Part shown: piece after piece, positions 11,758 to 22,923 of the stretch
How positions within the stretch are numbered: the stretch's first letter is position 1
Layout: every line of letters begins with the position of its first letter
Origin: a virus
DNA: 64,000 nt
Reading direction: 5' to 3' (one strand)
Virus record (IMG/VR): IMGVR_UViG_3300037258_000147
Location: 40,681-104,680 of that record
Made by a program: the position numbers and the translations under genes
Notes under the pieces: model-generated
Database searches by the model: none
What the model was told of the DNA's origin: nothing
What the model saw: the letters and a program-made list of their open reading frames with translations, nothing else

Positions 11758-11849
11758 TGGTGGGCGACGAGGGAATCGAACCCGTCTGGCATCTCTCATC
11801 TAGAGACTACAGGGTTTATAAGGCCCCGCCCCGTCCTACGGCATCGCCC
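11758..11849 (-). tRNA. Atypical long-variable-arm tRNA, anticodon TAT (Ile/AUA)
   Basis: GGGCGAT acceptor, tiny CCGT-AGG-ACGG D hairpin, CTTATAA loop, ~23-nt variable arm, bulged T-stem, ACCA. Confidence 0.65.
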
Positions 11850-11870
11850 AAACTTGTCCATTTAATGGAC

Positions 11871-13471: not shown

Positions 13472-13626
13472 TGGTCCTCACCAATACCCGAGTCGAACGG
13501 GAAAGCGGGTTTGTCGCAGCCTACCATTAGAAGACGGTCCAAAGACCGGAGAGATTCGAACTCTCATTTACGACCCACATCAAGCCAGACATCCTATCCA
13601 CTAGACGACGCTCCGACTCGGGGACT
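13472..13626 (-). ncRNA. Degenerate/compound tRNA-like element (two D/T-like modules, ends ACCA)
   Basis: T-arms GAGAG-TTCGAAT-CTCTC and CCCG-TTCGACT-CGGG; D-like GTCTAGTGGATAGGAT and TTCTAATGGTAGG; no paired anticodon arm. Confidence 0.4.
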
Positions 13627-17033: not shown

Positions 17034-17111
17034 TGGTTGCGGCTCTCGGGAGTTGAACCCGGTATCCCAAGGGTATGAGTCTTGGATGGTCATCCGTTCC
17101 ACTCAGCCGCA
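17034..17111 (-). tRNA. tRNA-Met(CAT), initiator-like acceptor
   Basis: TGCGGCT/AGCCGCA-ACCA, CTCATAC loop. Confidence 0.75.
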
Positions 17112-17726
17112 TCAAAATTTAAAAATTCCTGCATCATATTCCCAATGATGATTTGGACACAAGGGTAGGAGGTTATCAATATCATTGATCTCTCTTATCA
17201 AAGTGTCAGTAGAAAAAGAGGAAACTGATCTAATATGAGCAACGTCAACGTGATTCGAATACCCGCAAACACAGCATTTCTTCTCTTTACCCCCGTCTAG
17301 GTATGTCTGTCTGGCATGTCGTTGAATCGAACTTCTAGCAGATTGATACCCGCCTCTTCGACCAAACAACTCGCCTTTCGTCCACCCCGAAAGTTTCCCA
17401 GTTCTAGTTTTCTTTAAGCCTCGAACTTTCTTGCACTCTTCAGAACAAGTAAACTTTCTTTTAGGAACAGGAGCCCCACAGACCCGACATCTACGAGAAA
17501 TATTCTTGTTTCGTTTCCTTTTCTTAGGAAATTTTGCATTGTTAAAACTCGCAGAACAAGTTCTGTTACAGAACTTCTTTTGTCGAATTTCAGATACTTT
17601 CCTTTTTGGATCAATAGTAATCATTGACAAACAATGCTTACAAAAATTAGGGTTTGCTAAGTACCTTTCCTCCGCTCTCTGCCTTTGCAGTAAAGCGGAG
17701 ACTATCGAACCACTTGATTTTGCCAT
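17112..17726 (-). CDS. HNH endonuclease with Zn-finger repeats
   Basis: FCNRTC, CRVCG...TCSEEC, CCVCGY...VAHI......N...NLLPLCPNHHWEYD. Confidence 0.85.
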   Translation of the reverse strand: MAKSSGSIVSALLQRQRAEERYLANPNFCKHCLSMITIDPKRKVSEIRQKKFCNRTCSASFNNAKFPKKRKRNKNISRRCRVCGAPVPKRKFTCSEECKKVRGLKKTRTGKLSGWTKGELFGRRGGYQSARSSIQRHARQTYLDGGKEKKCCVCGYSNHVDVAHIRSVSSFSTDTLIREINDIDNLLPLCPNHHWEYDAGIFKF

Positions 17727-19063: not shown

Positions 19064-19138
19064 TGGTGCGATAGGAGGGACTCGAACCCTCAGACGCTGG
19101 GTTTTAAATCCAGATGATTTGCCATTCTCTACTATCGC
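19064..19138 (-). tRNA. tRNA-Leu(TAA) with short variable loop
   Basis: TTTAAAA loop, 5-nt variable loop, CCA. Confidence 0.75.
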
Positions 19139-19162
19139 GTGTCCATTATTTGGACTAAATTT

Positions 19163-19390
19163 AACGTCAAACGTCGGAAAAGAAAACCGACAGGACAATA
19201 TTCGAAGTCCGATAAGCGAAGTCCAAAGTGCAGAAATGCTCCATACTTCCCGCGTCAATATGCAGTCGATTCTAAGAATCTAATATTAGCGGGCGTCACA
19301 AAGCGTCAATGCTGGCGGAGTGTTAACTCCAAGCGATCCTATTTTTTAGGTAGGGTCAGCCGGTTGTCCTTCTCTTCGGTTTGACGGGGA
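19163..19390 (-). ncRNA. ~230-nt structured RNA with 7-nt periodic tract, downstream of 19411..19980
   Basis: Closing helices CGTCAAAC/GTTTGACG, GAAGAGAAG/TTTCTTTTC, AGGACAA/TTGTCCT; heptamers TGCACTT TGGACTT CGCTTAT CGGACTT CGAATAT. Confidence 0.6.
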
Positions 19391-19410
19391 TGGCCGAGGC
19401 CGTCCCAAGC

Positions 19411-19980
19411 TTAGATGAGATCGTATTTCTTGAGGACAGTTTCTTCCTCTTCAGATAGTTCGATCTCATGTCTGATGTTCAAATCAAGTAGCTTGTCGCT
19501 TAGACTTTGCTTGCGCTTGCGGAGATCAGACACTTCCTTAAGATACGTCGGAATCCATCCTTGCGGAATAGCCCCCGTTGTGAAAGAGTTGGACCGAGGG
19601 GAATAGGAATTAACCGGTTGTTCCTTCTTCAGATCGGCGTGTGCTTCGAATAGCACGTTCTCGTCCGGAGCGAAAGACGAGACGGAAGCAAGAGGCTTCA
19701 AAACTGCGGCCAGTTTGTCAATATGGGCGACTTCGGAAAGAATCGCCGATACCCCCGCTTCGTGGCTCTCGTTCGAAACCTTCTGCCGGATCGAGTACAA
19801 TACCGCTAGCAAATATCGGGTCTTATCCAAAGCCGCTTGGAAAATACTCGCCGCGTGGATAATTGCCAGCTTGGGATCATCGTACTTCCCAATCGATACT
19901 TGGGTCGAAATCGAAGTTGACCCGATGCTCTCGTTGATCAACAATTGAAGTGCATTTGCTTTTCTCAGCGTTAGTTTCAT
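19411..19980 (-). CDS. All-helical/coiled-coil hypothetical protein (MKLTLRKANALQ type)
   Basis: 189 aa, GGAG RBS, heptad-like helices, C-terminal LSDKLLDLN...IEL. Confidence 0.8.
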   Translation of the reverse strand: MKLTLRKANALQLLINESIGSTSISTQVSIGKYDDPKLAIIHAASIFQAALDKTRYLLAVLYSIRQKVSNESHEAGVSAILSEVAHIDKLAAVLKPLASVSSFAPDENVLFEAHADLKKEQPVNSYSPRSNSFTTGAIPQGWIPTYLKEVSDLRKRKQSLSDKLLDLNIRHEIELSEEEETVLKKYDLI

Positions 19981-20014: not shown

Positions 20015-20130
20015 TTAGTGGTTGGTCAGGCGACTCCGTCTGATGTCGTTTCGGGGAATCCACTCGACTGGCTCGAACAGGTAACTGACCTCGTCCCTTG
20101 AGTTTCATACATCCGCGCTGCAACCACTAA
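20015..20130 (-). ncRNA. Structured 5' leader or small RNA
   Basis: 10-bp closing stem TTAGTGGTTG/CAACCACTAA, starting ~5 nt after an extended -10 TGTGG-TATAAT (20135-20145). Confidence 0.55.
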
Positions 20131-20164
20131 AGACATTATACCACAGATTTTTGTTTTGTGCGGA

Positions 20165-20707
20165 TCAGCAGAAAAGATATTTTTTCCACCGTTGGTCCTC
20201 ATCAAGTCCCACAAGTCTTAATAACATACGCGACGTGTGGATCGTTAGCCTACCTGGGATATGCAGCAACGGCATGTCTGCTTCTTCGGGGGTTCGATCC
20301 CCTTTCTTCAAATTACAAAATTTGCAGGCAGACGCTAGGTTATCCCAAAAAAATCCGCCGCCGCGAGACTCCGGAAGAATGTGATCTAGCGTCAAAACCA
20401 CTTTGGTGGGTTTACCATTTATGATTTTGATGGACCCCTCCTTTGCCCCGCAATACAAACACAAGTAGTGATCTCGTGCATATATGTTTGGCCGAGTCAA
20501 GAGCGAAATCCGAATAGGAATTTTTTTATAATTCCGGAGCCTGATAACGCAGGGCAAGGGGATTCCGGGGTAGACTTCAACTCCGTAGTCTTCTTCTGCT
20601 ACTGCCGCTCCTTTAACCAATAGCTTTAAAGCGTTCTTGGCCCGAGTGATTGAAACGGGCTCAAAACTCGCGTTCAAAACTAAAACAGCTTTATTAACCA
20701 GTGACAA
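20165..20707 (-). CDS. HNH endonuclease (McrA-like)
   Basis: VLVLNASFEP...RDHYLCLYCG...LTLDHILPESRGG...WDNL..ACKFCN.KKGDRTP. Confidence 0.9.
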   Translation of the reverse strand: MSLVNKAVLVLNASFEPVSITRAKNALKLLVKGAAVAEEDYGVEVYPGIPLPCVIRLRNYKKIPIRISLLTRPNIYARDHYLCLYCGAKEGSIKIINGKPTKVVLTLDHILPESRGGGFFWDNLASACKFCNLKKGDRTPEEADMPLLHIPGRLTIHTSRMLLRLVGLDEDQRWKKYLFC

Positions 20708-22581: not shown

Positions 22582-22923
22582 TCAGGCAACATGCTCTAAT
22601 TCTATTTTTTCTATTTTTAGATTCTCGGGGGCCATCATCCGGTCTACCAGTTCGTCTATGTTCTTCCACCTCCCCAAACGCTTCAGGGACTCTAATCTGT
22701 GCCATGCTTTGAAAGTAGGAGACTCTACACATTTAAGAAAAGCCGCTTCCTTGTTCTTGCGTTGATCTCGACCGTCTCTGTGCTCGGCCCGGGCTCCGGA
22801 TTCGGGATGGATACATCGGACTCCGTTCTGCTTGGCGTTTCGGTGCTGACCGCCGTTACCTCCAGTGCAGAAGGTCTGAAACTCGAAGTTTTTTGCGGTC
22901 AAAGAAAATAATAGAGTTTTCAT
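22582..22923 (-). CDS. RF-1-domain (GGQ) peptidyl-tRNA hydrolase/ArfB-like protein
   Basis: GGNGGQHRNAKQNGVRCIHPESG...R.Q..NK..AF. Confidence 0.85.
   Translation of the reverse strand: MKTLLFSLTAKNFEFQTFCTGGNGGQHRNAKQNGVRCIHPESGARAEHRDGRDQRKNKEAAFLKCVESPTFKAWHRLESLKRLGRWKNIDELVDRMMAPENLKIEKIELEHVA

Follow-up and report, generated by a model that had tools for sequence, protein, structure and literature searches.

A Conserved Structured RNA with UG Triplets at Seven-Nucleotide Spacing and Its Linked Helical Protein: A Candidate Ribonucleoprotein Module of Phage tRNA Islands

Results

A Protein Gene and a Non-coding Segment at the Head of a tRNA Array

We analyzed a 64,000-nt stretch of viral DNA, the last 64 kb of the 104.7-kb, 97%-complete virus record IMGVR_UViG_3300037258_000147, which is referred to as the window. 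On its minus strand, to which all window positions below refer, lies a gene for a 189-amino-acid (aa) helical protein (19411–19980 in the list of open reading frames, ORFs; start MKLTLRKANALQ). Between the stop codon of this gene and a tRNA-Leu(UAA) gene (19064–19138, ARAGORN) there is a non-coding gap of 272 nt (19139–19410), which holds the ∼245-nt RNA described here. The window contains 28 co-oriented tRNAs according to ARAGORN, and the protein gene and the RNA head that array. No terminator was found between the window's gene, RNA and tRNAs, so they are probably carried by a single transcript. An earlier note on this sequence had picked out the helical ORF and its place, together with a closed RNA, at the head of a tRNA operon. 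Both observations hold: the AlphaFold2 model of the protein is mostly helical and the 28-tRNA array follows. Related loci that were compared with the window are designated by L-numbers (L001 etc.).

The Segment Is a Structured RNA of a Large Family

The segment behind the stop codon folds with z = −4.1 relative to shuffled sequences, and close homologs of the protein (66–89% identity, from metagenomes) carry the same segment downstream of the gene. Its structure was assessed in three alignments: 8 sequences of the window's own subfamily, 24 elements of a sister subfamily in which the RNA lies upstream of the gene (upstream-type; aligned with MAFFT), and 57 sequences from across the family. As a control, the 3′ partners were slid by 1–3 columns and pairing was recounted. 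With the curated structure, 93.4% of cells in the window's subfamily are paired vs. 41–49% after sliding, and 12 pairs are altered on both sides, as in GAUUC/GAAUC to GGCUC/GAGCC and GGAGU/ACUCC to GGUGC/GCACC. The sister subfamily shows 19 covarying pairs. Family-wide, 94.6% of cells are paired vs. 32–45% after sliding, a percentage that leans high as this alignment (A6) was fitted to the model structure; the same picture emerges from the slid controls and from MAFFT alignments made independently (A3, A5). Double-sided changes occur in 47 of its 56 pairs, and none of 500 shuffles matches the observed value on any measure. From the covariation in two independent subfamily alignments and across the family we conclude that the ∼245-nt segment is a genuine structured RNA and a member of a large family.

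These changes also bear on the idea that the repeats act at the DNA level, as iterons, operators or promoter elements bound by a DNA-binding regulator. The repeated words contain TTG and resemble −35 boxes, and promoter-like hexamers overlap the element. However, positions that change on both sides remain paired as Watson-Crick or G-U, and the element tolerates G-U pairs and has a strand-specific signal. Sites in DNA show no such pattern of evolution, and we give this explanation hardly any weight.

Two covariance models were used to search for further members, R1 from the alignment of the upstream-type subfamily and R2 from that of the window's subfamily. R2 matches the window at 19135–19404 with 291 bits, a match by construction as the window is part of its alignment, and finds no second copy in the 104.7-kb phage genome. 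Full-length R1 matches were obtained in 41 loci of other subfamilies, L001 included, all on the strand of the protein gene. The window itself is not matched directly by R1; it is joined to the R1 family via L001, whose RNA is 82% identical to that of the window, and via R2. Reciprocally, R2 matches L040 (E = 4e-18), L036 (E = 9e-8) and more than 10 further subfamilies at the places found by R1. A GC-rich variant in a Brevundimonas phage (L106) is matched by neither model; we include it in the family on the strength of synteny, a covarying fold of its own and its UG heptads.

No Rfam family matches 19139–19410 at E ≤ 1 or at gathering score, and ARAGORN reports no tRNA or transfer-messenger RNA (tmRNA) there. 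Likewise, Rfam 15 gave no match at E ≤ 1 over the RNA in eight diverse family members, while the same scans did detect GOLLD, tmRNA, CyVA-1 and tRNAs adjoining it. The families that the RNA does not match include GOLLD, ROOL, 6S, tmRNA, RNase P RNA, Y RNA, HEARO, the group I intron and the self-cleaving ribozymes. The idea of a tRNA-Met with an intron, which arose because distant homologs have tRNA-Met directly 3′ of the gene, was rejected: the acceptor and T arms have the wrong geometry, and neither ARAGORN nor Rfam gives a match. Readings of the RNA as RNase P-like, 6S-like, K-turn or box C/D-like or PUF-like found no test in their favor.

Architecture of the RNA

The whole RNA begins with a 5′ flank and hairpin H0, ends with the 3′ strand of helix P1 and spans 19165–19410 as judged from the R2 match. 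H0 (19387–19406, from the fold) begins 5 nt past the stop codon; its family equivalent, helix 1, shows compensatory changes in seven of seven pairs and is paired in 97% of cells. The comparative data then place the 5′ strand of P1 (CGUCAAAC, 19379–19386) opposite 19165–19172. P1 is paired in 95% of cells with two covarying pairs in the subfamily, and the corresponding family helices 2–3 covary at every pair. The 5′ strands of P2 (19359–19374) comprise P2a (19367–19374, GAGAAGGA) and P2b (19359–19365, AACCGGC), which pair with 19177–19184 and 19185–19191, respectively, so that the closing 3′ strands of P2 and P1 lie together at 19165–19191. P2, helix 2 of the subfamily, is paired in 92% of cells, and in L030 and L031 pairing is kept through GGAAAA/UUUUCC and CCGAC/GUCGG.

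The earlier note had proposed that three helices close the RNA. All three complementary pairs exist in the window, and two of them have comparative support: CGTCAAAC (19386–19379) with GTTTGACG (19172–19165), which is P1, and the purine-rich stretch 19374–19367 with 19184–19177, which is P2a. The third, AGGACAA (19370–19364) with TTGTCCT (19198–19192), is not upheld. It is broken at 3–4 positions in L030 and L031 without compensation, its 3′ side being invariant and its 5′ side lost in these loci, and it competes with the conserved P2.

Inside the closing helices, the fold gives a variable hairpin region, P3 (19317–19350; CCUA..UAGG and GGAGU..ACUCC), in which L001 has GGUGC/GCACC instead of GGAGU/ACUCC. 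It is followed at 19289–19304 by the 5′ strands of P4 (19297–19304) and P5 (19289–19293), whose 3′ strands occupy 19238–19253 (P5, 19249–19253; P4, 19238–19245). P4 and P5, helices 4 and 5 of the subfamily, are paired in 98% and 100% of cells; in their family equivalents, helices 6 and 7, compensatory changes are seen in six of nine and five of five pairs. The loop of P5 contains a small hairpin (19268–19280, GAUUC-UUA-GAAUC; subfamily helix 6), paired in 100% of cells with the variants GAUUC/GAAUC, GGUUC/GAACC and GGCUC/GAGCC. Just 5′ of the P5 3′ strand lies the first single-stranded motif site, UGCAUAUUG (19256–19264), for which the family consensus is UUG-N4-UUG with the triplets present in at least 90% of sequences. 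A shorter echo of the heptamers suggested in the earlier note, TGCATATTGAC (19264–19254), turns out to be this site, one of the conserved motif sites of the family. Between the RNA and tRNA-Leu(UAA) is a 26-nt spacer (19139–19164) with a small hairpin, GUCCA-AAUAA-UGGAC, which is preserved in L026 and L031.

The order of elements across the family is as follows. The 5′ part consists of a conserved AAGUUUUG, H0, P1, an unpaired GAGA, P2 and the variable P3. In the middle, P4 encloses P5, whose loop closes on UUG-N4-UUG, and a junction tract CUG-N4-UUG-N4-UUG follows. The 3′ part has a variable hairpin, P6, in most lineages, then UUGCAnAUUGUCC and the 3′ strands of P2 and P1; UUGUCC is the last conserved unpaired motif.

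Single-Stranded Tracts Carry UG at Period 7

The tract of heptamers on which the earlier note was built is real and is best read as NNNNTYG. Five successive NNNNUYG heptads occupy 19230–19196. The pattern TYG(N4TYG)×4 has one match in the window, counting both strands, vs. 0.01 expected from shuffles. Tandem Repeats Finder (TRF; minimum score 30) reports no classical tandem repeat in 19100–19450, because only the UYG triplet is periodic. From the pattern search and the family alignment, the full tract (19196–19233) reads CUG-CACUUUG-GACUUCG-CUUAUCG-GACUUCG-AAUAUUG, then UCC, and aligns to the family's junction tracts CUG-N4-UUG-N4-UUG and UUGCAnAUUGUCC. Because P6 is missing in the window, tracts 2 and 3, which are separate motif sites elsewhere, are fused into one five-heptad run.

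In most loci, heptad tracts on the gene strand adjoin the protein gene. The nucleotides kept in at least 90% of sequences are mostly UG or UUG triplets, always 7 nt apart and always unpaired, and family-wide (Y)UG triplets at 7-nt spacing fill three or four single-stranded tracts per RNA. In the cultured phage Kikimora the tract is UGUGCAC-UGUGCCG-UGUGAAC-UGUGCUC-UGUGAUG. As only the UG at period 7 is kept there, we take this to be the invariant feature.

Linkage and Order of RNA and Protein Gene

The RNA and the protein gene are always neighbors on the same strand. In every locus with adequate flanks, the motif cluster is found within 700 nt upstream or 450 nt downstream of the gene, never on both sides, and the loci lacking it are all cut short on one side. 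The linkage holds in the opposite direction too: a pattern search that started from the RNA found 24 viral contigs, 23 of which have the protein gene 40–72 nt downstream, and for the 24th the sequence examined stops short of the position of the gene. The RNA is single-copy in the genomes where this was checked. No other protein is a consistent neighbor; the next most common one occurs in 8 of 88 loci.

The order of the two is not fixed. The RNA precedes the gene in most lineages and follows it in the window and in at least 12 other lineages. Even within one close group of RNAs the order flips (downstream in L074, upstream in L080 and L094). More distant protein homologs (29–43% identity) often have a tRNA directly after the gene, with the RNA upstream instead. 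Thus, the earlier note's expectation that homologous genes are followed by a conserved structured RNA was right as to the periodic RNA, which is kept, but mostly not as to its position.

In most subfamilies the 3′ end of the RNA is 20–70 nt ahead of the start codon, with RNA and gene on one strand and no intervening terminator. This placement also fits a purely cis-regulatory element: the RNA would then be the leader or 3′ untranslated region of the protein's own mRNA, bound by the protein to limit its own synthesis. In one version, the main target of the protein would lie elsewhere, for instance in a tRNA or rRNA that the leader mimics. The strict pairwise linkage is also what autoregulatory leaders show. 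However, the downstream position of the RNA in the window and the other lineages does not suit a leader. A strong intrinsic terminator directly follows the RNA in L008, L012 and L017, where there are no tRNAs, and in several loci another ORF intervenes between RNA and gene. Some upstream-type members appear to have a promoter, TTGACT-17-TATAAT, inside the 3′ strands of the RNA, from which the gene could be transcribed without the RNA. Finally, an RNA of 250–290 nt with nine helices and ends that butt-join tRNAs is far more elaborate than known protein operators. We therefore regard the cis-regulatory explanation as unlikely.

The Partner Protein

The AlphaFold2 model of the 189-aa protein is mostly a helical bundle (mean predicted local distance difference test score, pLDDT, of 87), in which short N- and C-terminal strands pair with each other. 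The family comprises 1,905 clusters at 50% identity (E ≤ 1e-3), all of stand-alone proteins of about 185–191 aa and almost all from phages, on contigs of about 60 kb to 374 kb. Among one genome each of 185,579 prokaryote species there is a single match, on an 11-kb contig of a metagenome-assembled genome, and the family is therefore essentially confined to phages. The protein is also encoded, at 25–29% identity, by seven cultured jumbo phages of Brevundimonas pondensis (Domovoi, Kikimora, Gurke, Papperlapapp, Bambus, Marchewka, and Kabachok). In four of these, Domovoi, Kikimora, Kabachok, and Bambus, an unannotated gap of 285–315 nt follows the gene (L106:4598–4910, L133:1477–1762, L134:1498–1808, and L135:1498–1811); all four gaps were folded and show H0, a long covarying P1 and UG heptads.

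The protein has no match in Pfam, PHROGs, NCBIfam or PADLOC. A sequence profile search of the PDB returned only a designed protein (E = 0.008). In fold searches a functionally uncharacterized Corynebacterium protein, 3kdq, ranks first (Foldseek E = 0.019; VIA Z = 9.6 over 142 residues), and the remaining fold matches are generic helical hairpins that are not informative. BFVD gave only uncharacterized proteins of large phages and giant viruses (from CcrColossus, Erwinia pEa_SNUABM_47, Vibrio Vp_R1, and Catovirus), and the ESM Atlas only unnamed viral clusters.

When modeled as a homodimer, the protein reaches an ipSAE of 0.70, while the best of three controls reaches 0.01. Of proteins solved as pairs of the same chain, 20 of 30 attain a value of 0.70; of those solved as single chains, 1 of 23 does. 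Contacts agree to at least 97% among three runs, with a partner pLDDT of at least 89, and the interface runs along the long central helices. These models suggest that the protein probably forms a symmetric homodimer; of the oligomer that the earlier note had proposed, self-association is thus predicted, in the form of a dimer. The most conserved basic and polar residues, K2, R6, K7, N9, Q12, R154, K155, K157, and N168, lie outside the dimer interface and may constitute an RNA-binding surface.

An RNA gene that adjoins a gene for a ∼190-aa protein, usually upstream of it, and that contains short repeated words calls to mind the type III toxin-antitoxin systems (ToxIN, CptIN, and TenpIN), in which the adjoining gene encodes ∼170–200 aa. 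The earlier note had accordingly thought of an antitoxin-like RNA. Several observations speak against a type III-like pair or another RNA-protein pair of abortive infection or counter-defense. The 34–36-nt tandem repeats of such systems are absent (TRF), the only periodicity being a degenerate one of 7 nt. Searches of Pfam, PHROGs and PADLOC give no match of the protein to the ToxN/AbiQ, CptN or TenpN endoribonucleases or to any other family, and the helical model is not ToxN-like. In addition, these systems are mainly cellular or plasmid-borne, whereas the present family is nearly absent from cells. We consider an explanation of this kind very improbable. A guide-type RNA had been proposed as well, and we found nothing that points to one.

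Genomic Setting

The module usually sits in tRNA islands, and in many relatives the RNA is butt-joined to a tRNA at one end or the other. Examples are L060 (tRNA 77–149, RNA 150–426), L047 (tRNA 938–1009, RNA 1009–1283), L102 (tRNA 2426–2496, RNA 2495–2786) and L074 (RNA 2238–2502, tRNA 2500–2570), suggesting that tRNA-processing enzymes define the ends of the RNA, as for the stable RNAs of phage T4. The tie to tRNA islands is common but not strict, as 7 of 20 viral loci lack a tRNA within 3 kb.

In the window, a candidate TG-extended −10 promoter, TGTGGTATAAT, was read from the sequence at 20135–20145, and the relatives L001 and L027 have the same box, TGTGGTA(T/G)A(A/G)T, ∼35 nt ahead of the ATG. 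Transcription of the window's gene, RNA and tRNA array probably starts at this promoter. In the window, the leader ahead of the 189-aa ORF contains an additional segment of ∼116 nt (20015–20130; GTGGTTGC...CAACCAC stem), which is absent in the close relatives L001 and L027 and looks like an inserted element outside the conserved module.

Genes for HNH endonucleases (17112–17726 and 20165–20707; PF13391 and PF14279) flank and interrupt the tRNA array of the window, and in L001 three matches to group I introns precede the protein gene. Sub-threshold tRNA-like matches (23–26 bits) at 17038–17110, 13541–13615 and 11761–11850 fall into gaps of the array in which ARAGORN reports no tRNA, and may represent degenerate or unusual tRNAs. 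In related loci, the protein gene very often has a tRNA with a CAU anticodon (Met, fMet or Ile2) right next to it (e.g., L002:3574–3647, L004:3578–3654, L005:3575–3653, L007:3620–3693, and L010:2904–2979); the ARAGORN list of the window's 28 tRNAs has none.

Several genes near the module belong to translation or transcription. Near the tRNA array of the window, at 22582–22923, a 113-aa ORF encodes an RF-1 (GGQ) domain (PF00472, E = 5e-9) and could be a stand-alone peptidyl-tRNA hydrolase or a ribosome-rescue factor. Permuted tmRNA genes are found 1–1.5 kb downstream of the module in L002 (4437–4948), L044 (2937–3448), L094 (2828–3128) and L080 (3414–3570). In six loci, the module is accompanied by a 75-aa ORF that encodes an Rpb6/omega domain of RNA polymerase (PF01192, E = 4.5e-10; L061:1458–1685), in L092 and L094, for example, between the RNA and the gene. 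A phage-encoded omega subunit is unusual.

The RNA and the protein could also act in antitermination: like nut/boxA-boxB sites, put RNA or EAR RNA, they would protect RNA polymerase from terminating along the tRNA array, which is long and not translated. The window's RNA, at the head of a 9.7-kb array of 28 tRNAs that is interrupted only by homing-endonuclease genes, would suit such a device, as would the sigma-70-like promoter that directly precedes the RNA in several lineages and the omega-like ORFs. In many loci, however, tRNAs on the same strand lie upstream of the RNA. In L008, L012 and L017 it is followed at once by the terminator rather than by tRNAs, and 7 of 20 loci, as noted, have no tRNA nearby. 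The protein has no likeness in sequence or fold to NusB, N or Q proteins. Antitermination is thus quite unlikely in our view.

GOLLD and ROOL, too, are phage-encoded, elaborately folded RNAs found among tRNA genes, probably co-transcribed with them and of unknown function (PMC5737381; PMC12286853). Rfam GOLLD (190–213 bits, often with a nested tRNA) was detected 70–1700 nt upstream of the RNA in at least nine related loci, including L076:656–1123, L046:352–812, L005:1800–2260, L047:295–762, L002:2142–2606 and L008:1467–1929, and not in the window. GOLLD and the new RNA seem to share a habitat. Two further Rfam RNAs of unknown function, CyVA-1 (54.6 bits, L001:3821–3896) and freshwater-2 (55.3 bits, L017:3900–3970), lie directly 3′ of the new RNA in two subfamilies.

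This neighborhood raises the question of whether the RNA works on its own, as an RNA-only assembly, a ribozyme or a sponge for a host factor, with the protein separate from it or accessory to its folding or turnover. GOLLD and ROOL, which occur near tRNA islands, form RNA-only cages (PMC12286853). The junctions of the new RNA contain highly conserved unpaired nucleotides as do those of ribozymes and aptamers, and the protein is not basic. On the other hand, the two-way linkage to a single protein family, independent of order, is unlike GOLLD and ROOL (PMC12286853), and periodic single-stranded triplets are typical of protein-binding sites. We find an RNA-only role improbable, to about the same degree as the cis-regulatory one.

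Discussion

Because the RNA and the protein are so tightly linked, a ribonucleoprotein is the leading reading of the module. Specifically, we regard it as fairly probable that a processed, stable scaffold RNA with period-7 UG tracts is bound by the neighboring helical dimer; the binding, the processing and the role are inferred. The gene and the ∼245-nt segment would then be the two halves of a conserved phage module, a non-coding RNA and its dedicated protein. The RNA would be made within a longer transcript that also covers the protein gene and, in the case of the window, the array of tRNAs, and would most likely be trimmed to its stable form by the enzymes that excise the flanking tRNAs. 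Its closed multi-helix scaffold (H0, P1, P2, the variable P3, the nested P4 and P5 and mostly P6) would display the UG tracts to the stand-alone helical-bundle protein, probably a symmetric dimer. The tRNA islands, GOLLD, tmRNA, the RF-1-domain gene and the omega-like genes suggest that, during infection, the particle may act on tRNA, on translation or on the island's transcription.

Some points weigh against this picture. No RNA-binding fold was recognized in the protein by fold searches, and its median isoelectric point of 6.6 and net charge of about 0 speak mildly against RNA binding. The position of the RNA before the gene in most lineages would also suit a leader, the loci without nearby tRNAs loosen the tie to tRNA islands, and the family-wide pairing percentage is flattered by the fitted alignment.

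More tentatively, a broader proposal is possible: the module would represent a new class of phage ribonucleoprotein in which a helical dimer reads a period-7 UG code on a scaffold RNA of ∼250 nt. The particle would be cut from tRNA-island transcripts and would work with the phage tRNAs, GOLLD cages and tmRNA. Its task might be, for example, to protect phage tRNAs, to help them mature or to deliver them, or else to trap an RNA-binding factor of the host.

By habitat, the nearest known systems are GOLLD and ROOL, which resemble the new RNA as elaborately folded phage RNAs in a tRNA-island setting. The new RNA matches neither Rfam model, however, and is smaller, at about 250–290 nt vs. about 580 and >800 nt. 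It also has a strictly linked protein gene and a core of periodic UG tracts, whereas no protein partner is known for either GOLLD or ROOL (PMC12286853). Species 1 and 2 of T4 (rnaC and rnaD) are likewise small stable RNAs of unknown function in a phage tRNA cluster, butt-joined to tRNAs. Kinship with them was considered and dropped: the 189-aa family has no relationship to the neighboring T4 proteins e.5 and e.6, and R2 gave no match at E ≤ 1 in the T4 tRNA region (L107), a search made in one direction only, R2 against T4.

By likely binding logic, the nearest systems are HutP with hut mRNA and TRAP with the trp leader. HutP binds UAG triplets 4 nt apart, that is, with period 7, and TRAP binds 11 (G/U)AG triplets, one triplet per subunit. 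Both are beta-rich ring oligomers that control attenuation in cellular operons. The regularly spaced triplets in single strands and a self-associating partner, predicted in our case, are shared, which is a likeness in possible working and not membership. Here the partner is a helical bundle, and instead of a leader tract the RNA forms a large closed scaffold. Pfam gives no match of the protein to HutP or TRAP, and neither family is among the listed fold matches. The sponge RNAs CsrB and RsmZ, which bind CsrA, also present several copies of a short single-stranded motif on a structured RNA. Their motif is GGA in hairpin loops, in contrast to UG at period 7, there is no homology, and the candidate binding protein of the new RNA is encoded by the phage right beside it.

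We found no description of either the RNA or the protein in the literature. The new RNA family and the new protein family would together form a module of a kind not described before, "new kind" resting here on the absence of any match. At a minimum, the annotation of phage genomes gains one new family of RNAs and one of proteins. If the ribonucleoprotein reading is true, the module would be the first protein-partnered member among the structured RNAs of phage tRNA islands, and it could add a new mode of RNA recognition, a helical dimer reading UG triplets 7 nt apart. To our knowledge, the purpose of GOLLD, ROOL and the T4 stable RNAs has been obscure for decades, and we know of no protein partner for any of them. 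With its covariation support and its dedicated protein, the new module is open to ordinary tools such as pull-downs, gel shifts, cryo-electron microscopy and knock-outs. It would thus offer an experimental handle on what tRNA islands do beyond supplying codons, and its function, once found, could show the role of tRNA-island RNAs.

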